A DNA stretch of 63,817 nt, the filler included, from Atractiella rhizophila (taxonomy: Eukaryota): assembly GCA_021432655.1 (NCBI GenBank). It is 11 parts of 11 records of this genome, joined end to end, with 100 filler letters (N's around TTAATTAATTAA, not from the genome) between each part and the next. Parts side by side here need not be neighbours in the genome. Positions count along the whole stretch, not along the records: positions 14,144 to 21,096 come from MU272254.1; 10 more parts are not named here. One strand, given 5' to 3'. A program made the position numbers and the translations under genes. Positions 14,144 through 57,883 of the stretch are shown one piece after another. Position 1 is the first letter of the stretch. Each line of letters begins with the position of its first letter. Below the pieces are notes generated by a model. That model was given only the letters and a program-made list of their open reading frames with translations, was not told the DNA's origin and did not search any database.

Positions 14144-17100
14144 CAGATCATGTCGCCTTTTCACCGTTTTAACCTCACTCTCCACCTCAATGGTCATCTT
14201 CACCGTCCACTCGATCCCATCCAGGGATCCCCCGTCTGCGAAATTAGTGAAGGAGACATCTCGACCGACGTGGCGCCCGTTGAGGTAGGACTCGGTTTTG
14301 ATCCGCATACATACTCGTTTGTCAGGATCTGAACTCGGATTGACGAAGACCGCCAAACGGTTACCTGTCCCGTCGAAGACCAGTCTGACGTTCTATCGCG
14401 AAGTCACAGGAGGATCAGTTACAGCTTTTGGAGGAGAAGATGAGCTACGTACTTCTCTCGGAAACATCTCCGTCGCCTCCACCAACACCCTCTCCAACAG
14501 CGCAGTACAGAGTCCAAAAGCCTGCTCAGCCTGCTGCACGCTCCCACAGGTAGCAGCGTCCATATCCTCGAGAGGTATGTACTGAAATCCAAACCACCGT
14601 TTTCCATTATGATGCGCACAAAAGATGCCATCCATATTCCCGAGACGGGCTTGAAAGGAGTATTTGAGGAAGGCGTTCCGGATGAGATCAAAGTATTCTC
14701 GCTCAAATGATTCAAGCTCGCCCTCGCGCGTTGCCAGGCGGTAATACATTCCGGTCTATATCGTCGCAACGGATTTGAGAGAAGGGAAAAGATGGATGAG
14801 GATAAAGGACGAACCTGGTAGTTCATTGGGTCTATTCGTAAAGGCATGACAGCTCGCGTTTTGACGTCGAAAGCGGCCTTGGGCAAGTTCGGATTCCAAC
14901 TGTCGAGCTGTGAGCGAACGATGAGTCGTCCTACCTGTCATCAATTTTATCAGTCTGGGATTGCCCAAGAGAAGAGGAGGAGGAGAATGAGCGCACTCTA
15001 GAATAGTGGTATACGTGCTCTAGCTTCTCTGGCTGATTCTCTTTCGGGCGGGTGAGCAGATAATCATCGAATTTATCCCCTTCTGAAGTCAAGAGAGCTT
15101 CACCCAGGGTGCCCTAAAAGACCCTAGATTTGAGACCTACGAGGACTGATCAAAGAAAGGAAACTGACAAATTTAGAGAGCATATTGAACCAATGAACAC
15201 CCGGCATGGCATCTGCATCCCTCTCCGTGTCCCACTTCGCCGCATCCACAGCGTACCTCCCTCCACCCTCTCCCTCTCCGCCAGATTTGATCCACACCAA
15301 CTCCACCGCCGCCGGCTTCAACGCTCCACTCCCAAACGGCGTCTTCGATTCCCTAAACGAGGCATGTTTCAACATGGAATAGTTCGGTCCGGCCCTACTG
15401 AGTGATATGAAGATCTGTTCGAGAGGTCCTCCGACCTGGCTCGTCGACGAGACGAACATCGGCCCTGCTTCCTGGCGCGTGTGCTCTTTAGACTGCGAGT
15501 CTGCTCCTGCTCCCGCTCCAGCTTCCCGTTCTGACGGACAGCCGACCGGGACGACGTCGAGGAGCTGCAGCAGTTTCTTGTCGCAAGATGGTTTGGTGAA
15601 GGATCCAATGACGTCCCAATCGACGTCCGCGAGCGGCGGTATCTCTACCGGGATATCAAAGTTCTTCACACCAGTCCTCGGGTCGACGAGCATGTGCAAG
15701 CCGGGATTGGTGAGGCAGCGTTCGAGGGCGTGTTTGAGTCGTGGGAGGGTGGGGAAGTTGGGATGGGGAAGGAGGGGTTCGAGCGAGAGTGGCTCCAGCC
15801 TCTTGTTGGTGCTATTGCCGTTCGTTCGGGATATAGTGGCCTTTTGAAATTCCATCCCTGGAGCTAGCGGCGGGAGAGACGAAGATGCTGGGTCCTCTGA
15901 TATAGAACTTGCGAGAGCACTACCATTGCGTTCCCGCTTCTGCTTCCCTGCCCTCGGATGCGATCCCGTCTCCGTCTCTCCGTCCACTCCCTTCACACTC
16001 AGCATCTGCTTCGACAGCTCAAACAAGAAGCTCGCAGCCATGGGATAACCCTCTCCTTGCTGTTGTTGCACCACGCCTGATTGGTGCCCAATTTCCGAAG
16101 AGGTGGAGGGGGTGGCTAGGTAGGAGGGATGCAGGGTCGCCTCAGTGCCCAAGTGGAAGTCGGCTATGGAAGTTTTGGGCGCGTTGAAGCGGTCTGTAGA
16201 CGACTGTTGTTCGGACATCCGTACGGCCTCAGCAAGGGAAGTTGAAGCGTCGTCTTCATGGCTATGGCTCGTACTCGCATTGTCCATCAATACCGTACCT
16301 GTTTGGACAGCCTTGAATAGGGACCTAATCAACCAACCAACATGTGGAGTTAAATGCTCTCAGTTTGAAGAGGAGAGAGAAAGTGAGAAAGAAAGGGGGA
16401 CAAACATTCCCCTCTCCCGCAGCGCTTTCCTACTCCTCCAAGACTCCGGCTTCAACCTGCTCTGCAGCGTGAAGATCCGACCCCTCAGCCTCTGTATCCC
16501 CTTGTCCTTCTCCGGCGCCACTATCTTCCCCTCCAACACCACTATCTGCTTCCTCAGTTTGGCTATTTTCTTGAGCACCGCTTCTTCGTACTCTTTATAG
16601 TCGTCACTTTCTCTTATTTCTTCCGCGTCTTCTCCTTCCGCCAATTGTCCGTTTTGATATTGCGTGGGAGGTGGCACCGATGTCGATGCTGATGCTGAGG
16701 GTGATGTTGATGGTGCTTGCGATGAAGGAGCGAGCGAATTGATACCCGTACCAAAAGCGCGATATGACGAAAGGCCTTCAGCTCTCCACTTTACCTCCTT
16801 CACTCCACTTCCCTCCTCCTCCAGCGCCTCCTTTTCTTTACTACGTTCGATACGACCTTCCTCACGCCCGCGCTCCACAGCATGAACCGCAAGCCTCAAG
16901 AACGACCTCATAGCCCTTGCCTCGGATCGAAGCTGTTTCTCTATCTGCCGAAGATCGCGCAGATCGCCCATGATGCGGTGGATGAGGTGTTGGATGTCTT
17001 GTCGTACGCTCCCAAGCTTTCCTCCTTCTCCAATTGCACTCCCATCTCCGATTTTATTCTCATTTTCCTTTTCATCTTCGTTTTCCTGTCTTCTCCCAAT

Positions 17101-17418
17101 CCCACTTCTACTTCGTTCTCCGGTAATCCTCCCAACGAATCCACCCCTGACCATCCTACTAGTACGCCGTCCGCCTCTTCCTCTTCTACTGCTACCAATG
17201 GCGGCCATGTGGCCCAGCGAAGAAACGGGAGGAGCAGATACCTGACTGGGGAGGGAGGTCGGCGTTGGAGCGAGGCTGGTGTTGGATGACGGAACTGGTG
17301 AGGAATGCAAGGAAGCGAGGGAGGAGGAATGGAACGCTCCATAGGTATACATTGCCGTTGATGTGCTACTGTGGATGGCGCTGGTCGACGCGTGGAGGAA
17401 GCTGGAGAGACGCTTCAT
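14144..17418 (-). CDS. PET127: Mitochondrial Pet127-family RNA 5'-processing protein; multi-exon, 3' truncated
   Basis: Motifs LKHALERCLTNPGLHMLVDPRT, FDVKTRAV and ESFEREYFDLIRNAFLKYSFQARLGNMDGIFCAHHN..WFGFQYIPLEDMD match the Pet127 family. Ser/Arg-rich, acid-poor N-terminus (MKRLSSFLHAS) is consistent with a mitochondrial presequence. Confidence 0.88.
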
Positions 17419-18238
17419 TACGCTTTCGACAAAATATAAGACGTGTATTATAATCTTTATGAAAACATTTGTTTCGCGTCCAAATATCAGAGATAGAGAT
17501 GAGATAGGAATAGCCCTGGATATAATAGCTAGGCACCACTGTGCAAAAATGTCAAGGAGTCATGGTGTTGAGCCCATGACTCATATTTGGAGTTCATTCA
17601 ACTTCAACTCACATTGTGCTTCTTTGACCGTGAACGTTGGAGGTGCTCACTCTACGCAAAGCAAACCAACTTCAACAATCGACGACGAGAGCTTTGTTTG
17701 TTAAGGAAAACCGTCATCTCAAATACTCAAGTGATTGGGAGAGTATATTTCCGTTGGCGAGCACGGAAAGTCTCTGGTTCCAGTTCCTCCGTCAGTATTC
17801 TCCTTTTATGGCGGAAAGGGATGCAAGTGGGAGCGATCTTAATAAACGCCTGACTACCGTTGAACTTTTTTATAGAGGTCGAAGCAGAGCAGTCTTGCGT
17901 TCGCGATCTCGAGTTTCATCTGTCACAGTGAACGTACGTGTGGAGGGAGGAATGGATTCCAAATAGCCTCTACGTCTCTTTGTGGAGAATATTAGTTGTG
18001 GTATCCATGAAATACCCAGATGGGAAATAATTGAGCGGCAAGGCGGTTTGATTGATGAACTCGCCAACATGCTATGCTTTTGAGGATTACCTGCAAACCA
18101 TGGAAGCTGATGAAATTGGTTCTAGGACCCATTCGAACTCACACATTTTTCTTCTTCCTTCAAATTGTGGCACTATTGACGCTTCCGACCCTGGATGTCA
18201 ACGATCGCCTTGCAATCTAACCCTTTACTGCCGCCCAT

Positions 18239-21096
18239 ATGTCTGCAGATCATTCTGTCAAGATCTTCAAGGACCCTGAGACCATCAAGAAAGTGAATCC
18301 CAAGGGATTGCGGATCCTTTGCATTGACAGCGGGGACATGTGCTCCTTTGCACCGTACATGCTGGAACACATCATGACTCAAGTTGCATATCTTCTCGAC
18401 GTGCCTCATGACGAAGAGCTTCGCCCCTGCGATATATTTGATCTGATCTGTGGAACTTCAACCGGCGGATGGATCGCGCTCATGCTCGGGAGGCTGGGAA
18501 TGACCGTTCGCCAGTGCATTACGGCATGTGAAGGGATCGCGCAGAAAGTGTTCCGCGAAAACGTCTCGTTCTCCAGTGAAGAGTATGCTTATTCGGCAGA
18601 AAAGTTTGAAGAAACTTTCATTTCTATTATCCAGCGGCATATGAACACTTCTCACGATTTTGCAAAATCCCTTTCCATGAAAGACTACTCCTTGCAAGAT
18701 CGATGCAGAACTTTTGTCCTTGCTACCTACAAGTCGACCGTCACTCTTTCCAAGGTGATGTGCTCTTACGATATTCGCGACGCTGCATCCTCTTCGGGCT
18801 CCCCTGCTTCCACTTGTATGGTCTGGGAAGCTGCAAGAGCGACTGCTTCCAGTCATCCCTTCTTTCCTCCTATCATCGTGGATTCCACTAGTTACGTTAG
18901 CCTAGGTCACGATAACCCTCCGGCAATAGCCCTTGAAGAAGCGAAGCGAGTCTGGGGACACAGTAGTGAGATCACCTGCCTTGTGTCTCTCGGCTGTTGC
19001 TTTACACCTTTCATCAAGTTGGGCCACACTCGAGATGATGTTGACCGAGCAGTTCAGGCGATAGCCATCGATTGTTCAAGAGTCTCGAAATGGGTGAGGA
19101 AGATGATGCAAGACCAGCAGACGGGGCACTGCTATTACCGTTTCTCGGTCGATACGTTTGGAGATTTCAAGCGGCAGGATTGGGAGCGAAAGAATGATGT
19201 TGTAGGCTGTACAAAGGCTTACATGGAAGAGATGAATCATGAAGTGTCAAGTGCTGCTCGATCTCTGGTGAAAGGTATATTCTTCATCCTTGGTACCTGC
19301 ATGCTAACTTTTGTTCATTAGAACACAAAGATCGTGTCATAGCATATGGGAAGATTCCTTTACCTCCTCCAACCGCTTGTTATGGGAGAGAAGAGGAAGT
19401 TGGGCAGGCCATAGAATTCATCCTTACCGACAAGAAACATCTTGCTATTATTGGTGGCGCAGGCACTGGCAAGTCTACCGTTGCATTGGAAGTCCTCCAT
19501 GCAGACCACATCAAGAATGCATTCACGACCGTAACAGATGGTAAGGAAGAAGACTTTCGCTTTTGGGCGAGATGTGATGCCTTCTCCACCTTCTCCTCTC
19601 TCTCGGCCCACCTTTGCAGGAACGTTTTTGGATTCGCTCCTCCATATGGTGACGATGAGCTTATGGCTGTCGCACAATATCTCAACTCTCATAATTGTCT
19701 CCTGATCTTGGATCATTTTGAGACCCCCTCACACTCTGATACCAATAACCTTCAACGATTCTTCCAGACTATTACCGAATGTGCTTCTGGTTCCATTCTT
19801 GTCGTCGTCCATCGTGGCCATCAAGTTGAACATGTAAACTCGACAGGAGTGAAATTTCAAGAGCTAGTGATTGGAGGCTTGAGCGAAACTAGCGTCCTCG
19901 ATATGTTCGAATACATGTACTTCGCGAAAAGAGGATACTATTCCCGGGAAGATGAACAGCTGGTCAAGACAATTGGTGCCAAGCTGGACCGTCATGCCTT
20001 GTCGGTTAAGCTCTTCATTATTCGTGCAAATGAGGAGTCGACTAAGACCCTAGCGGTTTTGGTGGGGGAATGGGAGGCAAAGAAGACCAGCATGCTCTGG
20101 GCCAAAGATAGTGAGGAGACACACGCTCTTGCGACTTCAATATCCCTTTCACTCAATTCACCGCTGCTTAAGAAGAATGAGGACCTTAGTGCTTTTTTCC
20201 TTGCCATTCTATCTTGGACCCCTGATGGTCTTCTTGAAGAAGACATCATAGCTATGGGGGATAATTCTGATGCTCATCATTTAGGACAATCATCCGAGGT
20301 CGTCACCGCAATCTTAGGTGTTGGACTTGCTGAAAATGTGCCTGACGTCCTAACGAATTCACTTCGACTGCGCATGCTGGCACCAATTCGTGATCACGTT
20401 AACAGTTTGGTCTTGTGTTCCACTCTACCTTTTACAGCCGTCACTTTATACCTTGAGAAGTTAATGGAAGCTCTCATTGATAAGGCTCGCAGAAATGCCC
20501 AACAGTTCAAAGATAGGGTTGAACAGACGGGACTGCTATCATTTCGCAACGATTGTTCGAACCTTGAACATGTCCTTATAGCTGCTTTCAAACACCTCGA
20601 AGATCCAACACCTGTTCTCAATTTCCTGGCAGAAATTTGGGAATTCATGCACCATCAACGCCTCCTCTCAGTAACATTGATACAGTGTGCACTGTCCTAT
20701 GCGGTGTCTCGTTGTACGGCTCCAATCACAGCTGAATTGACAAGGGCTCTTGGGACAGTTTTTCAACAGAGGGGAAACACACAACTGGCACTGAGTCAAT
20801 TTTTTGATGCGAGGGAGCTGTATCTGCAGGTGGAAGATTGGCACGGCATGGCCCACTGCATTCACAGTATGGGGCGGATTGAGCAGGATCGTGAGCGGTA
20901 TGAGGAGGCATTGAAACAGTTTGAAGAAGCGATGGAGCTGTATCTACAGGTGGAAGATTGGCACGGCATGGCCCACTGCATTCACAACATGGGGCAGATC
21001 AAGCAGGATCGTGGGCGGTATGAGGAAGCATTGAAACAGTTTGAAGAAGCGAGGGAGCTGTATCTGCACTTGGAAGATCGGCACGGCATGGCTCTC
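18239..21096 (+). CDS. Fungal NLR-type protein: patatin-like domain, STAND (NB-ARC-like) P-loop NTPase, TPR repeats; 3' truncated
   Basis: Exon 1 18239-19274: PCDIFDLICGTSTGGWIALMLGRLGM, VWEAARAT, CLVSLG, YYRF (patatin). Intron 19275-19321 (GT, GCTAAC branch, TAG). Exon 2 in frame: PPPTACYGREEE, Walker A GGAGTGKS (19453-19476), Walker B LLILDHFET, RMLAPIR, then 40-aa TPRs. Confidence 0.92.
20809..21096 (+). repeat. Near-identical 120-bp tandem repeats encoding 40-aa TPRs; array cut by the scaffold end
   Basis: Units start at 20809, 20929 and 21049. 20821-20940 and 20941-21060 differ at 9 of 120 nt by manual count. Confidence 0.95.
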
Positions 21097-21196
21097 NNNN
21101 NNNNNNNNNNNNNNNNNNNNNNNNNNNNNNNNNNNNNNNNTTAATTAATTAANNNNNNNNNNNNNNNNNNNNNNNNNNNNNNNNNNNNNNNNNNNN
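21097..21196. other. Artificial scaffold linker
   Basis: N44-TTAATTAATTAA-N44. Confidence 0.98.
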
Positions 21197-22008
21197 TTGG
21201 TATTCAAACTGTCCTTGATTATGATCTGATTAAACATAACATCTCGAAATATTAACACCCGAGTCGAATTTCGCTCATAGTATCAAAGAGCTTTGTGGAT
21301 GGTAAAACGTTACGTCCAGTCATATTACCACAATCACATCCCTTCAATAACTGCACAGTCAGGTAGGCTGGCCTGTTTAAAGCTTTGGGATGTTTTTGAG
21401 TCCGAAATCGTCAATAAATCGAGAACTTTCTCCGGTCAGAATCGCACCTCCAATTGACCACGACATCTGCGTTAAAGTTAGGCCTGTAATGGCAGCTGGC
21501 TGGGAGGACATAGTGGAGCGGCTCTCCCCTACCGTGACTTACTATTTTGCGTTCAAGTTGCTTTCACTTGGAATACAAGTACTGGACGTCAATCTGCGGC
21601 ATATTCCTGTGACTCGCAGGGACGAGCGTGACCGTCCCAAACGACCGAATCCAGAGCCGATCTGGATCGGACGGGAGGACGACTCACACTTTGAAACAAA
21701 AGAATTTAGCTTTTGTAATGCAAGTAGAAATGGGGCAGCAGAAATTCTGAGAGTTGCGAAGCGGAGCGCAGAGGATTTCATCCTAAAGGTTCAAAGATGC
21801 AGTTCCGCAGCGTTGAGACATATCCATGCCACATCCCTGCTAGAGTTGCAAAGTGAAGCTAGAGAACTCCGACGGACCTCTACTCCTGAAGTCAGCGTGG
21901 GTCTGAATGTCCTGTGTGAGACAACAGATTCGCTACTTTTGCGTCGTTCATGATATGCAGGTCGAGGTCTTTAGGGGAGTCGCGTTGAGCAGGTCTTCTG
22001 AGCCGCCT

Positions 22009-22015
22009 TATAAAA
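22009..22015 (+). promoter_or_regulatory. Candidate TATA box of the dynamin-like gene
   Basis: TATAAAA about 50 nt upstream of the ATG at 22063. Confidence 0.45.
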
Positions 22016-22062
22016 CCTCTGGTGAGTGCGAATTTTCCAGACACCGATCATCGAATCGAAAC

Positions 22063-24965
22063 ATGAATTCTCTCCAGGCCATTTACGAAAAAGAAACCAG
22101 CAAGCTCACTCAACTTCTGACGGAGTTGGGCAAACTGGGAATCAAGGATGAGAAGATCCCACTGCCCGGTATCATCGTGGTTGGAAACCAGAGCGCTGGA
22201 AAGAGCTCTCTAGTTGAAGCTATCTCCAAAGTACGCCATCCTCTCTTCCTCTCATAGTCCTCAATATGGTTGAGTAGATATCTTTACCTCGAGATGTGAA
22301 CACTTGCACTCGATGCCCCATCACGATTTCGATGTCGAATTGTCCTTCAATGGATACGGTCGAGTACAAGTTCAGCATCCAAATTCGATACGACCGTTCC
22401 ACCGGTGATGCCCTGACCGCTGCTGAATCTCAGACTGTGGATTTCGGGCAAAACAGCCAAGATCCCAGGGCTGTGCCTGAAAGGATTCTTCGCGCGCAAA
22501 TGTACCTGCGGCATTCGGATCTTTCCATCGATTACTGCCTCGAGACACCACTGGATACCCTGACGAACAAGTTCAACGACTTGGCAGGGAAGAAGCAATT
22601 CTCAAAGAACATCATCCATGTCGAGGAGATGGGCCCTTATCTTCCTAACCTTGTATTCACCGACCTACCAGTGCGTGTGTCGCCAAACAGCATTTGTTTC
22701 TACGTTGACCTTTGATTGTAGGGAATAATCAGCAACACTGGGAGCAATTCATCCGAGAACACTATCGAGTTGGTGCAGTCTCTCGTTGCTGAGCAGATGA
22801 GCGTAGAATCCAACATCATCCTGGTGGCCATGCCAATGACAGGTCCGTTCATTCTCTATCCGCTGAACGGAACTGAACTACAGACCTAGATGACATGAAC
22901 AACCAAGCTGCATTCCGACTTGCCGCTGCCGCTGATCCAGGGGGCAAGAGAACAATTGGTCCTTTCTTGTATTATGAATCAGGAGTCTGAGTCTGACTTT
23001 CAGTAGGAGTCCTCACTAAGCCAGACTGTGTGAAAAACCCAGCCGAAGCAAAAGCAAAGGGAAGTCAGCTTTGAGCCAAATGCAGCTGGAACTAATCCTC
23101 CAACAGTGGTTCCGTAGCACCAAGCAAAGGGGTTACGGCTGCTTCTCTAGGTGTAAACAATGGAGACTTCTGCCTCATGATGGAGGCCTAAGCCATCGGT
23201 TTGACTTTATTCCGCACACTGGTCTCTAGACGGAGAGTTTAACGAACATCTTGTGCAGTTACGAAACTTGGTTTGGGAGCAGAGGACCTACTGTCACACA
23301 CACCCGAGGACTTGACGGAGCGGTTCAGGACCGTATGGTACACTTCAAGCATATAGCCTAAAGGTCTTCCGAGTTGTCCTTCCCGAGACCAAAGCTCCAG
23401 CTAACTAAAACTCCGCTAGCTGATAGTAAACCGCTTAGCAACCTTCCGATTGCTGTGGAGTTAGTGTAAAACTATTGACCACTTCTTCATCTGTTTGCTA
23501 AACGCTTTAGCAAGCGACTCTTCGAAATCATGTATCGTAATCCCACAACTAATGTAGGCGAATTCTCTAGGCATGGAACTGGTTCATTCACTGTTCCCTA
23601 GGCTACGGGGTAGGCTAGTTGGAGTAGTACCAACGAGGTGCCGAGGAGCAAAACTTTCATGTTGGAAAGGAAAACCTAAGGTTGGACCACAGGAGAGAAC
23701 TAACATAGGACCAACGTACCACTACTTTATAGGTACGAACTCGCTTTTTAGGAACAACGACAACAACTTTTGCCCATCNNNNNNNNNNNNNNNNNNNNNN
23801 NNNNNNNNNNNNNNNNNNNNNNNNNNNNNNNNNNNNNNNNNNNNNNNNNNNNNNNNNNNNNNNNNNNNNNNNNNNNNNNNNNNNNNNNNNNNNNNNNNNN
23901 NNNNNNNNNNNNNNNNNNNNNNNNNNNNNNNNNNNNNNNNNNNNNNNNNNNNNNNNNNNNNNNNNNNNNNNNNNNNNNNNNNNNNNNNNNNNNNNNNNNN
24001 NNNNNNNNNNNNNNNNNNNNNNNNNNNNNNNNNNNNNNNNNNNNNNNNNNNNNNNNNNNNNNNNNNNNNNNNNNNNNNNNNNNNNNNNNNNNNNNNNNNN
24101 NNNNNNNNNNNNNNNNNNNNNNNNNNNNNNNNNNNNNNNNNNNNNNNNNNNNNNNNNNNNNNNNNNNNNNNNNNNNNNNNNNNNNNNNNNNNNNNNNNNN
24201 NNNNNNNNNNNNNNNNNNNNNNNNNNNNNNNNNNNNNNNNNNNNNNNNNNNNNNNNNNNNNNNNNNNNNNNNNNNNNNNNNNNNNNNNNNNNNNNNNNNN
24301 NNNNNNNNNNNNNNNNNNNNNNNNNNNNNNNNNNNNNNNNNNNNNNNNNNNNNNNNNNNNNNNNNNNNNNNNNNNNNNNNNNNNNNNNNNNNNNNNNNNN
24401 NNNNNNNNNNNNNNNNNNNNNNNNNNNNNNNNNNNNNNNNNNNNNNNNNNNNNNNNNNNNNNNNNNNNNNNNNNNNNNNNNNNNNNNNNNNNNNNNNNNN
24501 NNNNNNNNNNNNNNNNNNNNNNNNNNNNNNNNNNNNNNNNNNNNNNNNNNNNNNNNNNNNNNNNNNNNNNNNNNNNNNNNNNNNNNNNNNNNNNNNNNNN
24601 NNNNNNNNNNNNNNNNNNNNNNNNNNNNNNNNNNNNNNNNNGCAGCTACTACCTGACTCGGGCAATCAGTCTTTTCTCTCGTCGTTTCGAATACATACTG
24701 ACTGAAATATGCTGTGGACTTCTTCTGTAGTATTCGTTTTGGTGTTGTGCCGAAAACCATCACTCAGAAATACCTACGAGAACTCGGGGAGGCGATGAAT
24801 AGTGCTCTGATGAAAGAGTGCACGCCAGATCCAGATAACGGAAACTATGAAGAGTTGAAAGCCCTGGTAGCTGAGGACCCAGAAGTCACGCTAAAGAGGA
24901 AAGAACTCAAGGCGTCTAAAGAGAAGTTGGAGTCTGCTCAAGCGGAATTGAGAAAGTACACTTGA
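22063..24965 (+). CDS. Mx-like dynamin-superfamily GTPase; multi-exon, middle part in a mirrored block and a gap
   Basis: G1 VVGNQSAGKSS, G2 TCTRCP, G3 TDLP|GII, G4 GVLTKPD, split by short introns (e.g. 22231-22277, 22671-22721). C-terminal GED-like exon RFGVVPKTI...LVAEDPEVTLKRKELKASKEKLESAQAEL* ends at 24965. Confidence 0.9.
23110..23778. other. Mirror-reversed (reversed, not complemented) block holding dynamin middle exons
   Basis: Read right to left it continues the exon-start TGG at 23107-23109: W-LPVFNNSNKDFSLKHGYFITMQP...ERLYFQNEEPWS...LVTYLVK|LLSERFRK|..LPTIRQ...HPGDEGLVQSIDVFYKQFERQI, with GT-AG introns and a few single-base indels. Confidence 0.93.
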
Positions 24966-25094: not shown

Positions 25095-26714
25095 TCAAAA
25101 GTCTTCAACCTCTCCTCCTTTCTCCTTTTGCACCTCGTAGAGACCCATGAAGACATCCGCATCATCCACAAGCTGGTCGAAAAAGGAAAGGGATGTCCAT
25201 TCAGCTTCTTCCCGACCTTCAAATAAATGGAAAGCCACATCTCGCCCTTTTGCAGTCAGACTGTCTTTGTACGCCAGAGCTCGTTGGAGCTCCAATGGAG
25301 ACCACTCTCCGAAAAACAATCTGATACTGAGCCATGCATCTTTGCGGGAGGCGAAGAACCAGTTTGCAAAATCGAGAAATCCGACGAAGGCGACGGAGCA
25401 ATAGCCGATGTCCAGAAAGCGCAAATTGGACAGATTGCGCAAGGAACGTTGGCTGAAAAATTGAATAGGAAGGACTTGGTTCCGGTCGTGTCCTCCATCT
25501 AGTGTAAGCACTTTCAGATTTGTGAGGTTTGAGATTTCGAGAGGATGATCCAGAGCGAAACGACCGGTTTCAAAACGTTCGCTCTGTTCGAAATCTAGAT
25601 TTAACCTTTCTAAAGTCGCCTGTAGCTCGGAGAGAGACTCCAAAGGTGGAGTTTGGCGAAGGTCAAAATCTCCAAGTGTCGCAAACACAGGCAGCTCCTT
25701 AAGGCGGAAGTGAAGGACGGAATTCTTTGCAGGAATATCACAGTCAGCACGTTCCGGAGTCGTGATTGTTTCGCTGAGGGACAAAGCGCTCGGAGTAATA
25801 CAAGCAAGTCCTAAGCGATAGAGCAACGGAGTTGTATAAGAAAGGAGGAAGTGGCAATCTTCTTCAGACCAGCCAATGAGCCCTAAGCTTCTTATCGATT
25901 CCATTGCAACCAACGCACTCAAGGCCGGCTTTTCATGCGCCGCTGGTGGACCACTGAGAACGACACAGGTAATCTTCTGATAGACTTTAAGGGCCCGAAA
26001 GAGAATGGTGAATTCAATTTTCCGTTGCCGTTCGTGCTCGGTGTAACAAAACTTGAACCAGAAACGACGCGGAGCAGGACATTGTTGCAACAAGCGAAGC
26101 TTCTGGTTCCCTTCCAATGGCTCGATTTCGCGGATAGCCATTTCTTCTCTCCAACTGCGACACACCGCCGAATAATTCAAGCGAGACGTTTGTTTCCAAT
26201 CGGCTGCGCGTAGGCAATCAAAAATCATTGCCAAAAGTTCAAAGGGTAGTTTGTCGAACGGCGAAGTTTGAGGCGCGATGTCCAATTGAAAGAAAATGGT
26301 ATGATGAATCAGACGAGATTCAGATTTACTTTTCCAGTCGATTTCAACCGTTAAAGCAGAAGGTCCTTCTTGCAAATCGAACGTGAATATCTTATGTTGC
26401 ATCTTCGCAGCCTGTGGTACATCGAACCTGGCCAGGTAACCGGTGTAGGGTGAAATATAAATAAACAAGTCGGTAGATTGAAAGGTGTCAAAAGTCGTTA
26501 GTTGAGGCACTGAAAGGCGAGATGATAGAATCCTTTCTCCTTCTCCAACAGCGGCCGTAAGAAGGAAGTGGACCTTTCGTACCGATGTCCATCTGCGAAA
26601 AGCTGGGGTCCAACTGAAAGAGACGGTTTCGCTTGTTCTGGGAATATCAGATGGTGGTTTGGAGACCAGATAGCTGTGCAGGAAAGGAACGCGCTGCTGA
26701 TCCGACAGCGCCAT
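25095..26714 (-). CDS. F-box and leucine-rich-repeat-like protein, 539 aa, apparently intronless
   Basis: F-box-like SPFDKLPFELLAMIFDCL...YSAVCRSWRE, followed by LxxLxL units (LERLNLD, LTNLKVLTLDG, LSNLRFLDIGYC). Confidence 0.75.
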   Translation of the reverse strand: MALSDQQRVPFLHSYLVSKPPSDIPRTSETVSFSWTPAFRRWTSVRKVHFLLTAAVGEGERILSSRLSVPQLTTFDTFQSTDLFIYISPYTGYLARFDVPQAAKMQHKIFTFDLQEGPSALTVEIDWKSKSESRLIHHTIFFQLDIAPQTSPFDKLPFELLAMIFDCLRAADWKQTSRLNYSAVCRSWREEMAIREIEPLEGNQKLRLLQQCPAPRRFWFKFCYTEHERQRKIEFTILFRALKVYQKITCVVLSGPPAAHEKPALSALVAMESIRSLGLIGWSEEDCHFLLSYTTPLLYRLGLACITPSALSLSETITTPERADCDIPAKNSVLHFRLKELPVFATLGDFDLRQTPPLESLSELQATLERLNLDFEQSERFETGRFALDHPLEISNLTNLKVLTLDGGHDRNQVLPIQFFSQRSLRNLSNLRFLDIGYCSVAFVGFLDFANWFFASRKDAWLSIRLFFGEWSPLELQRALAYKDSLTAKGRDVAFHLFEGREEAEWTSLSFFDQLVDDADVFMGLYEVQKEKGGEVEDF

Positions 26715-28133
26715 AGAGCGGTCGATAAAAAGCTATGTGCTGGTCAGCAAACAATGTGTGTATAACGATCAAGTTGGACAGGATACCAGGATATCACTAT
26801 CGCCAGAAAATCCAACTCGAGTGTTCTAAAAAGTCCTCTTTTGAATGGTTCTATGCATTTCCCGCATGTGTCAGCATTTAGCAATCAAAGGAAGTTTCAG
26901 GGTATCGATGGAAGAGCAAAAGCAATGGATAACGTTGGTCCCATGAAAGAGAAATTTGGAGTATTAACGAATCCTGGTCACAATGCTTTTCCTTCAAGCG
27001 CCAAGCTTCACATTGCAGGATTTAGATACTCAGCGTGCTTCGACCCCTCAAAAATCAACAGCGTGAAAAAACAGGCGCAGTTGGTAGCATAGGTACATTG
27101 ACCAAACACTCAGAAAGGTGAAAGAGAAAGGTAAAAGTCCAGTTGGAAAAGTCAAGCGCGTCGTCTTCCAAACCAATGCACGTGACCAAGTCCAGCTCAA
27201 AACTCTGCCAGCACCTTTCATCTCTCCAGCAGATCTCTAGTACAGGGATTGGGGCAATGAAGAACGAGTGTTAATGAGGAGCGGTATGGCGCTGAGACAG
27301 GCAGGAATTCCACGCGTTAGTACCAAGGAGTGAGACTCTGAGCATTAAGCAACTAGGAATTGGATGGGCCACTGCACACGGATAATGATTGCGTGATGAG
27401 CCTGCGATAGGTGAGTATCTACTCTGCCTTTCAAGTGGGAGCGGAATGGATGCTTGTTTGCCTCCTTGACATTCATTTGGCAAAGACTTAACAACAAACT
27501 GCATCCTTCCTGCGCTACATGAGATGTGTTGAATCGTGTATATTGGTTTAAGGACATTCCTCCAGGAGAGATTCTACGTCCGACGCTCGCTGTTGCTACC
27601 TGCTACTATACATGAGGGTAGCCCAGTAAACCTATGTTTTTTGGCTATAAAAGTAGGGCAGAGGCATGTTTTGTGCCCAGGCTTGAAATCCAAGCTTCTC
27701 TGTGCTGTCATGAAGCCACCGCCACAGTTGGAAGATGCTAAACACGGCTGCATATAGAAATAACGTTTGGTTTCCATGACTGAACGAACGCTTTATAGAG
27801 CTTATTCAACTTGAAGTATTTATTTGCTCCCCGTGCGCTCACGTCCCATGGTTGCTTCAAAGTAACCCAGCACTAACTGTAGACCTACATTGCCGGTACT
27901 GTCTTACTGTCTCCGGTAGTGTTTAGGTGAAGTCACCGGTGCTTTTCAAGCATACAAGGTCAAGACCGCTGCTGGTCTACATCACATTTTGCGGCGCCGA
28001 GCGGGCAACGAGACTTCTCAATGTGTGCAGCCGAAGTTTATAACTTTGTGATGCTGAGAATGAGGTTGTAAATTTGATGTCAATTCTCCGACATCCCCCA
28101 CTGTCCGAGCGAGTTTGTGCCACAGATGAAGCA

Positions 28134-28233
28134 NNNNNNNNNNNNNNNNNNNNNNNNNNNNNNNNNNNNNNNNNNNNTTAATTAATTAANNNNNNNNNNN
28201 NNNNNNNNNNNNNNNNNNNNNNNNNNNNNNNNN
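28134..28233. other. Artificial scaffold linker
   Basis: N44-TTAATTAATTAA-N44. Confidence 0.98.
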
Positions 28234-51517: not shown

Positions 51518-51617
51518 NNNNNNNNNNNNNNNNNNNNNNNNNNNNNNNNNNNNNNNNNNNNTTAATTAATTAANNNNNNNNNNNNNNNNNNNNNNNNNNN
51601 NNNNNNNNNNNNNNNNN
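51518..51617. other. Artificial scaffold linker
   Basis: N44-TTAATTAATTAA-N44. Confidence 0.98.
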
Positions 51618-56319: not shown

Positions 56320-57214
56320 TATCCTAAGGGTTCTGCTCGATCTCCCCAAATGGACCACGACGAGTGCTGATCTGAATGAGCTAGCTGAAAGAAGTGTTCA
56401 AAACAGTGTTGCTTTTTGTCATTGTCAGCAACCAGAGGAGCTTCAAAGTTATCCAAAATAAGAAGACATTTTTGACTTCTGAAGTAGATGGCCACGTTCT
56501 CAAGTGAGGTCTTACTAGACTGGGATGGCGTGAAGGTATCTTTGCAAATGTGGTCCAAGCCTAACCGTGGGTTCGATCCTACTCCTACTTTATGCTTCCC
56601 ACCATATGGACGGAAAAGCAATGGTAGTGATGTCCCAAACGTTGTTCTTGCATCATGATTTTCAGCTGATTAGCCACAGGATCCATCGTCAATGATGGCT
56701 TTCACAGCCCCCTCAATCTTAGCTATCGTATGACGCAATGGGACAGCCTGAGTGAACCCTGACCCCAAAGATACAAGACAGGCTACTTGGCTTCTTTGTC
56801 CCCAAATCCTTTGTGACACCTCAGTCGCTAATGCTGCTGGGTCATTTTTTCCCATGGCGAACGATGATAGGATGGAAGAAGTCAGGATCAGGAAGGTGCT
56901 CTTGCTGCCTTCCACACCACACCACACATTGAGCAGCAAAGGGAGCTGAATGCGGACGTCATGTGTGCGTGCCTCTGTCAAAACAATGGCGTCTGATGCG
57001 TATCTTGAGCCGATAGAACTTCTGCATCAATCCACAACAGTGCCATCCTTCTTAGGTAGTGAGACAATTGTTCTGATGATGGAGCGTGGCATGCAATGAT
57101 GTCAAAGAAGGCGGCTTGGAGCCTCTCCACGGAGTACACGCTGCCTTCTTTCGAGATTAGAGCTTCTTTGGAGAAAACCTGCTGTGCGATCTGCTCATAT
57201 GCACGTATGCATTC
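56320..57214 (-). pseudogene. Decayed paralog of the patatin-STAND NLR at 18239
   Basis: ECIRAYEQIAQQVFSKE..YSVERLQAAFFDII, D*CR, VWKAARA, FFHPIIV, RIWGQRSQVACLVSLGSGFT..AVKAI, then HICKDTF..VAIYFRSQKCLLILDNFEAP. Colinear with the intact gene but with stops, frameshifts and deletions; no GTSTG, Walker A or TPRs seen. Confidence 0.82.
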
Positions 57215-57883
57215 TTAAATAGTCATCCCCAATCGTCTGAGCATGAGGGCAATCCACCCTCCCATGGAAGTGCCGCTACATGCTCCTTTATCTCCAGATC
57301 CTCCTTAACCATCGTCACCCATTGCTTCCCCCGTACTGCTTCTTGGAACGAATCATCCTTTAACCCTTCTTTCTCCATCCATGACTCTGATATCTCCTTC
57401 CCAGCTGCTCCCACAGATGCTCCGGACATCATATTGCAGCAATAGTTCACACTACCTGAGACATATTCAATGCAGCAGATGTTTTGGGTGAATAGGCATT
57501 CCCTCCATCGCTCATGCACAGGACTCAACTTCTCATTTTTGAGAATGGTAATTGGTTTTGATGATAATTGAGAATCCCAAGGTCAGGTCTCTCCAACAGT
57601 CTAAGCTATATTTGAGACCTTCCAGTTCAAGCAGCGGGGCTGAATAGAGCGATTCGCTGGATGTTGTCTTTCGGGATGTATATCCGACTGGATGGATGAT
57701 GCCCGCGTCAAATCGTTGGCTGAGGTGGTTGCGAAACCGTGCCGACATGCATCTGATTGGACAATGAATCCTGAATCTGGAGCAAAGTGTGGAGAGCGTA
57801 AGACCAGAGCGCTGCATAACGCAAGCTTTAGGGAGCTAATAGCATGTCTATACTTGTCGGTTAACTTCCACCCAGGATGTAAC

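Follow-up and report, generated by a model that had tools for sequence, protein, structure and literature searches.

A patatin-NOD-TPR gene of Atractiella rhizophila belongs to a gene family whose patatin-fold head lacks the catalytic aspartate

The stretch of DNA analysed here (the window, 63,817 bases, from the Atractiella rhizophila assembly GCA_021432655.1) consists of 11 short contigs chained end to end, with 44 N, a 12-base linker that has stops in all frames and a further 44 N at each joint (for example 21097-21196, 28134-28233 and 51518-51617); because the contigs are chained, gene neighbourhood across the linkers carries no meaning. One of the contigs, at window positions 14144-21096 (6953 bases), contains on its plus strand a two-exon gene of the type of the fungal NOD-like receptors (NLRs, where NOD stands for nucleotide-binding oligomerization domain), in which a head with the patatin fold is followed by a nucleoside triphosphatase (NTPase) of the class of signal transduction ATPases with numerous domains (STAND) and by tetratricopeptide repeats (TPRs). 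This patatin-NLR gene, and above all the state of the catalytic motifs in its head, is the subject of the present study. Its features are as follows.

18239-19274, plus strand: exon 1, the patatin-fold head, an open frame of 345 codons plus one base
18326-18346, plus strand: degenerate oxyanion (Gly-rich) loop, DSGDMCS against DGGGxRG, residues 30-36, placed by alignment columns
18452-18466, plus strand: nucleophile elbow GTSTG, residues 72-76 with Ser74, intact in the alignment
18893-18919, plus strand: shortened loop YVSLGHDNP, residues 219-227, placed by alignments and by the end of the Pfam match at residue 220
19275-19321, plus strand: intron of 47 nucleotides with GT..AG borders, read from the sequence and from an exact joint in one contig of sequencing run X3
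19322-21096, plus strand: exon 2, the STAND NTPase and TPR repeats, with the frame open up to the run of N
19453-19479, plus strand: Walker A motif (P-loop) GGAGTGKST, with G44, G47, G49 and K50 invariant in nine of nine aligned proteins
19696-19722, plus strand: Walker B-like CLLILDHFE, which aligns with LLFFDNAD of Mycena NB-ARC proteins
20809-21092, plus strand: tandem TPR units of 120 nucleotides (40 residues), 2.4 copies with 91% matches, from Tandem Repeats Finder (the last 284 bases)

The first in-frame ATG, at 18239, is codon 1 and is preceded by an in-frame TAA at 18218-18220. Exon 2 starts at 19322, where it completes the split codon G|AA, and the protein continues in frame into ...EHKDRVIAYGKIPLPPP..., the frame being open over 345 + 591 = 936 codons with no stop or frameshift. 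A sequence-only reading of this DNA had given the coordinates and the motifs DSGDMCS, GTSTG and YVSLGHDNP, all of which proved exact to the base on retranslation; its account of an open frame spliced in frame to a Walker A/B NTPase and TPRs is borne out by the GT..AG intron, by Pfam matches and by a splice joint in run X3. X1 and X2 are DNA-type runs of one sample, and X3 is a run of unrecorded type under another organism label; 75-77% of the sampled words of the stretch are present in X1 and X2, and 15% in X3. The X1 and X2 contigs that are identical to the window retain the intron (19141-19357, no differences). In run X3, one contig passes from 19274 straight to 19322 at the exact GT..AG borders, with 57 letters on the shorter side and a depth of 110.9, a value uninformative on expression because the aligned runs are all contigs. 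In a second X3 contig, 19274 is followed by 19345 and 23 letters are replaced, as expected of a spliced paralog. These joins support the intron model and suggest that the window gene or close paralogs of it are transcribed in a relative. Contigs at 85-95% likeness amount to 195, 225 and 95 records in the three runs, which indicates that the patatin-NLR family has many copies. Among the rows listed, window-identical contigs are found over 18504-18829 and 19141-20879 and leave the motif codons uncovered, so that the letters private to the window are those of the assembly alone.

The part of the gene behind the head has the make-up of a fungal NLR, with a P-loop accompanied by Walker A and Walker B motifs and with C-terminal repeats of high internal identity, the array being cut by the contig end. 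The NOD of the window gene is divergent. Among the Pfam NTPase families, AAA_22 passes its threshold (28.9 bits, cut-off 27), NACHT (25.4 bits, cut-off 26.7) and NB-ARC (17.0 bits, cut-off 23.5) fall under theirs, and the best sequence match in PDB has an E value of 0.026. The NOD of exon 2 was aligned with Mycena NLRs that carry an NB-ARC annotation, and its language-model neighbours are NB-ARC/nSTAND1 clusters, which we take as a lead only. The close relatives of the NOD half (19324-20700) and of its TPR continuation are two A. rhizophila proteins with 36-39% identity, found among 11 matches with E <= 1e-10; further matches to the NOD half are 22-30% identical and mostly unnamed, and the three named ones carry prokaryote-style JGI annotations. 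Judged by these matches, the NTPase module appears to be no less confined to its lineage than the head described below. A TPR_12 match (E 3.6e-18) covers exon-2 residues 514-580. The near-identical TPR repeat array is probably the cause of the assembly break at the contig end, and loose read ends near 21006 suggest several alternative continuations.

In a Pfam search the head is recognized as PF01734 Patatin (E 1.2e-12, 48.8 bits, cut-off 27.7). The match spans residues 60-220, equivalent to profile positions 21-177 of 191; it omits the oxyanion end and stops just ahead of the expected Asp motif. Column counts were taken from a MAFFT alignment of 222 patatin domain sequences, here called rows and numbered with a P. 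The column of the catalytic Asp contains D in 155 rows, G in 32 and A in 11, and in the window it is occupied by Ser221, with the next two Gly deleted. At the Arg of the oxyanion loop, R is present in 143 rows and the window has C. The first Gly of DGGG is Ser in the window loop DSGDMCS, and the third, which is G in 194 rows, is D (D33) in the window and in no other row. By sequence, the head has the GxSxG elbow of a patatin without the Asp motif and without the DGGGxRG loop, and the 222-row alignment thus upholds the earlier claim that, of the Ser-Asp dyad, the nucleophile Ser is kept and the Asp is gone, and that the oxyanion loop is without its Arg and Gly.

The fold itself appears undisturbed. 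An AlphaFold2 model of the head, built on 66 aligned sequences, has a mean predicted local distance difference test score of 87.4 (about 83 in the block of the oxyanion loop and about 91 in that of the shortened Asp loop) and a predicted template modelling score of 0.89. When this model was compared with PDB entries by Foldseek, the matches included AbCapV (E 8e-14, template modelling (TM) score 0.70), patatin itself (1OXW/4PKB, TM 0.72-0.73), iPLA2-beta and CapE. As modelled, the head is a well-formed patatin fold. A PDB search with the head sequence gave no match at E <= 0.01. A complex prediction with two copies of head residues 18-345 scored 0.01, a figure obtained with no control runs.

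In two very large searches, the closest proteins to the head are all from A. rhizophila. The search among longer proteins gave 78 matches, the top six being 42-54% identical to the window head; the second gave 2870 matches with E <= 0.001, 16 of them with E <= 1e-30, and 15 further matches that were looked up are all named A. rhizophila. Eleven rows make up what we call the Asp-less clade, namely the window and ten A. rhizophila paralogs (P0001-P0006, P0079, P0081, P0082 and P0084), the members being 40-57% identical to the window. The catalytic Asp is missing in all clade rows that cover the motif, and also in P0080/P0222, P0118, P0171 and P0093. Whereas the Asp motif of canonical relatives reads x-[FY]-[IV]-D-G-G-[LM]-G-x-N-N-P, that of the Atractiella group reads x-Y-V-[ATLS]-[MIVL]-G-x-N-N-P, with a small residue for the Asp and two Gly gone. 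In most members the oxyanion loop is DNGGIC(T/A)F for DGGGxRG, and two fragments, P0087 and P0088, are the only ones in which the Arg survives. In these searches the Asp-less patatin-NLR family was found only in Atractiella. A scan of metagenomes for DNA of the clade returned 27 loci whose best segments are 25-58% identical to the query, none of which was judged to be a clade member.

The 11 rows form one group in a FastTree tree of 208 rows (local support 91) and in an IQ-TREE quick search on a chosen 46-row subset of these, where the support by the Shimodaira-Hasegawa-like approximate likelihood ratio test (SH-aLRT) is 97. The nearest relatives of the clade are the canonical A. rhizophila protein P0083 and the long-branched P0086, together with which it makes an all-Atractiella group of 13 rows (SH-aLRT 98). 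The simplest history suggested by these trees is a single loss of the Asp followed by expansion of the family. Since the loss is ancestral to the clade, recent decay, which the sequence-only reading had named as a possible explanation, does not account for it, and the window gene is no lone oddity. The scoring of motifs in paralogs that had been proposed in that reading shows the Asp loss to be real but shared by ten paralogs, and not peculiar to this gene. Apart from its truncation, the window gene is an intact member of a conserved, Atractiella-restricted patatin-NOD-TPR family. Two short patatin paralogs also occur in A. rhizophila: P0083 (323 amino acids) keeps Ser and Asp, and P0228 (402 amino acids) is fully canonical. 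By length, neither has room for a NOD-TPR part, and both are candidate active partners or ancestors of the family.

Conservation after the loss was assessed by comparing the 11 clade rows with 121 canonical relatives. The frames of the clade members have stayed open. Per-site conservation in the two sets is correlated (Spearman 0.56 over 286 columns). The clade has 57 invariant positions, and 26 of these lie among the 28 elbow residues 63-90. Constraint is also suggested by the coding differences between the window and contigs 85-99% similar to it, which fall at 20 third, 14 first and 3 second codon positions (chi-square p 0.0024). Over the whole domain, conservation is 0.76 in the clade versus 0.51 in the canonical set, whereas in the oxyanion loop it is 0.79 versus 0.85; nowhere else does the canonical set, for all its depth, exceed the shallow clade in conservation. 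This pattern fits a fold that has been kept while its catalytic loop was relaxed. We consider it most likely, with a probability of roughly 0.68, that the head no longer performs canonical lipid hydrolysis and that it persists as a non-catalytic module for output or sensing.

We read the gene and its history as follows. The encoded protein is an NLR of three parts, with the patatin-fold head at the N-terminus, the P-loop STAND NTPase in the centre and TPRs with near-identical units at the C-terminus. In the common ancestor of the family, the head lost the dyad Asp, to which a small residue succeeded, and the next two Gly were deleted; most members lost the Arg of the oxyanion loop as well. After this loss the family expanded, with the head still under constraint. 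The data show the architecture, the missing motifs, the single origin of their loss and the later conservation, whereas the end of hydrolysis and the output role are inferred. As to the most likely job of the protein, the TPRs would sense a trigger, the NTPase would oligomerise, and the heads, clustered in this way as an output module, would either bind lipid or membrane or recruit a downstream partner. That an elbow can persist without catalysis is illustrated by a clade of Mycena proteins, which lacks Ser, Asp and Arg and retains GGSGTGG.

Several observations weigh against a constrained, non-catalytic head in this gene. The nucleophile Ser and the elbow are invariant in the clade, as they would also be in a still-active enzyme. 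The tally of codon positions comprises the 37 coding differences of 40 listed among 279, and several paralogs are mixed in it. The window copy has private changes at near-invariant positions (Gly to Asp), and its terminal branch is 0.62-0.67 long, against 0.1-0.28 in the nearest subclade; constraint on this copy may be weaker than on its relatives. Finally, the 3' end of the gene is missing, as it runs off the contig end at 21096.

The invariant elbow is the first argument for an enzyme with a rewired active site, in which the head would still be a hydrolase or acyltransferase and Ser74 would be activated by D225, by D33 or with assistance from the substrate. GTSTGG and its flanks do not vary in the clade, D225 is common to the window and the nearest fragment P0093, and plant pPLAIII patatins, as described in the parts of the literature available to us, offer a precedent for a non-canonical motif (GxGxG). 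The acids that might serve were therefore followed through the alignments. D215, in IVDS, had been named in the sequence-only reading as a residue that could fill the catalytic position. It is present in 10 of the 11 clade rows and lies between strands 212-214 and 217-220 of the head model, but P0083 has it beside its catalytic Asp, for which reason it was dropped as a replacement acid. D225, in HDNP, was the other residue named; it stands where NNP has its first Asn and is common only to the window and P0093 (...YVSLSRDNP). Among the clade rows shown, the six others that extend over this position have Asn. D33 is private to the window. An apparent clade-specific acid at position 269 was also dropped, as a probable one-column shift of the alignment. 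In the aligned sequences, to which this argument is limited, no acid turned up that is present throughout the clade and at the same time peculiar to it. Against a rewired enzyme there are, besides this, the oxyanion loop, which is the least conserved region of the clade relative to the canonical set and has its Arg only in P0087 and P0088, and the Mycena clade, which keeps the shape of the elbow without the Ser. We regard a rewired enzyme as unlikely.

Another alternative concerns the window copy alone, which could be drifting towards a pseudogene inside a functional family, with its frame still open but with private damage, and perhaps no longer expressed. The unique Asp in place of the loop's third Gly, which is G in 194 rows, and the longest terminal branch of its subclade would be explained in this way, and among the runs listed there is no RNA run that contains the exact stretch. 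The family does shed dead copies, one of which lies in the same window, on another contig.

56397-57274, minus strand: broken copy of the Asp-less patatin-NLR family, found as tblastn pieces in frames -1, -3 and -1 with 51-75% identity to P0222

In this copy an in-frame TAA (57217-57215) comes right after a GTSMGG elbow, the N-terminal part is lost, and behind the head only a short piece of the NOD is left, including the Walker B-like LLILDNFE. The broken copy shows what decay looks like in this family, with frame changes and an in-frame stop, in contrast to the open gene studied here, whose 936 codons contain no stop or frameshift and whose splice sites, Walker A and B motifs and TPR units are intact. 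Moreover, the combination of S221 and D225 is shared with P0093, and a spliced form of the gene or of a close paralog is present in run X3. Drift of the window copy appears to us improbable.

The presence of short canonical patatins in A. rhizophila (P0083 and P0228) bears on a further possibility, that the head is an integrated decoy or sensor, that is, a dead copy of a cellular patatin lipase targeted by a microbial effector, which the NLR would guard. P0083 groups with the clade; P0228 was not among the rows of the trees. The head is, however, N-terminal, where fungal NLRs bear their effector or signalling domains according to the accessible part of a review (PMC10197012), and a decoy would look the same in sequence analysis as the non-catalytic output or sensing head that we prefer. 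To a decoy we assign a low likelihood, lower than that of drift or of a rewired site.

A census of patatin heads places the non-catalytic reading in a wider setting. All three motifs are covered by 188 of the 222 aligned domains; 122 of these are canonical and 66 are without at least one motif. The sample is biased, as it consists of matches to a degenerate query, and the rows are not phylogenetically independent. The 66 rows are divided as follows.

Ser, Asp and Arg all lost: 27 rows
Ser only lost: 16 rows
Ser kept, Asp and Arg lost (the class of the window): 9 rows
Ser and Arg lost: 6 rows
Ser and Asp lost: 5 rows
Asp only lost: 2 rows
Arg only lost: 1 row

With 66 of 188 relatives lacking at least one motif, the Pfam label 'Patatin' on a fungal NLR is no evidence of lipase activity. 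Of the 27 rows without Ser, Asp and Arg, 22 have a Pfam record; 20 of these are Mycena latifolia proteins with TPR families, nine of which have NB-ARC in addition, and the remaining two have GATA fingers. An expansion of NB-ARC/TPR proteins is seen in Mycena latifolia (P0013, P0020-P0022, P0029-P0040, P0055, P0058-P0061, P0066 and P0070). Its heads have jointly lost Ser, Asp and Arg (GGSGTGG, YIGG, GGAG), independently of the loss in Atractiella. Losses of all three residues are found in this expansion and in Rhizoctonia/Ceratobasidium, and losses of the Asp only in Atractiella, Tulasnella, Hypsizygus and Gloeopeniophorella; many lineages have lost just the Ser. The motif labels require many changes when placed on the 208-row tree, the starred branches forcing at least nine for the Ser-only class. 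Degenerate heads make up 45 of 111 long proteins and 15 of 58 short ones (Fisher p 0.064, with non-independent rows), and no enrichment is claimed.

From these distributions we put forward, as a tentative idea that is rather doubtful at present, that in basidiomycete NLRs the patatin fold has become a non-enzymatic head several times over, each time independently. If this were true, a large share of 'patatin' NLRs would signal or kill without lipid hydrolysis, by an undescribed mechanism, for example by binding or disrupting membranes on clustering, or by recruiting a separate executor.

The surroundings of the gene can be described for the 7-kb contig only. Upstream, an open reading frame at 15127-16359 (minus strand) has a weak match to the mitochondrial protein Pet127 (E 4e-4, under the cut-off), and the adjacent one at 16363-17559 (minus strand, 399 amino acids) matched no family. 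No SNARE gene, such as would be expected for the linked polymorphic SEC-9-type partner of the allorecognition NLRs discussed below, was seen on this contig, which is too short for judging linkage, the two upstream frames having given only the weak Pet127 match. On the next contig of the window, the stretches 21910-22715 (plus strand) and 25098-26732 (minus strand) contain between them pieces of a dynamin-family GTPase gene, with Dynamin_N matches of E 4e-6 and 3e-5, and an open reading frame that has an F-box-like domain (E 5e-6).

To our knowledge, PLP-1 of Neurospora crassa is the only patatin NLR that has been studied functionally. The existence of a conserved Asp-less family suggests that patatin heads may act without canonical hydrolysis, or else that the active site has been rebuilt, and either would alter what can be concluded from sequence about an N-terminal 'enzymatic effector' domain in a fungal NLR. 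The gain from the window alone is modest, as it adds one more member, truncated and somewhat more degenerate, to this family. In the literature on inactive or pseudoenzyme patatins and on fungal NLRs, as far as its text was accessible, no description of dead patatin heads in fungal NLRs was found, and in the available text of a survey of NLR effector domains (PMC9815663) the words 'catalytic' and 'inactive' each have 0 occurrences.

Among known systems, the allorecognition NLRs PLP-1, HET-Z1 of Podospora anserina and VIC2 of Cryphonectria parasitica have the architecture patatin-NB-ARC-TPR. The comparison with PLP-1 is drawn from descriptions in secondary sources, available in part, and not from sequence alignment. 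The window gene has the same order of patatin, NOD and TPR, and its activation is presumably likewise driven by oligomerisation; the 'undescribed immune-type system' of the sequence-only reading was thus an overstatement, the gene being a variant of this known design. According to the accessible portions of reviews and a preprint (PMC12881547; PMC10197012; a Botrytis preprint), cell death by PLP-1 depends on its patatin activity and on its P-loop, as the same reading had held for patatin activity. Unlike PLP-1, the window head, to judge from its residues, is without the dyad Asp and the oxyanion Arg and Gly; in addition, its NOD is under the Pfam NB-ARC cut-off, and its lineage is Pucciniomycotina-like and not Ascomycota.

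Among solved folds, the closest to the head model are CapV and CapE (PDB 9jeh, 8zr9 and 9ion; Foldseek E 8e-14 to 5e-11, TM 0.64-0.71), effectors of the cyclic-oligonucleotide-based antiphage signalling system. By their entry titles these are immune effector lipases solved as filaments. They differ from the window gene in being bacterial and triggered by cyclic nucleotides, in having no NOD or TPR, and in their 14-16% identity to the head, and they are treated as active enzymes (an entry for an S58A mutant exists). The plant pPLAIII proteins, with GxGxG for GxSxG in the descriptions at hand, are a natural patatin subfamily that has, as here, a non-canonical motif. In these it is the Ser that is lost and the Asp that is kept, opposite to the window head, and they are not parts of NLRs. 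Plant pPLAIII proteins remain active.

The NB-ARC/TPR proteins of Mycena latifolia (for example P0020, P0022 and P0034) are, like the window gene, of basidiomycete NLR type with a motif-less patatin head, but they belong to an independent lineage (a separate starred clade of 27 rows) in which Ser, Asp and Arg were lost together. Closest of all are the 'FabD/lysophospholipase-like' proteins of A. rhizophila (P0001-P0006, P0079, P0222 and others; NCBI KAH89... records), which are of the same family. Their heads share with that of the window 40-57% identity, the Asp loss with the Gly-Gly deletion and the invariant elbow, and the same NOD-TPR continuation is present where the gene models reach that far. 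The window copy is set apart from them by DSGDMCS in place of DNGGIC(T/A)F, by D for the first Asn of NNP and by its longer branch. As the best full-length identity to these relatives is 51-56%, the window copy is either a separate paralog or a gene of a related genome.

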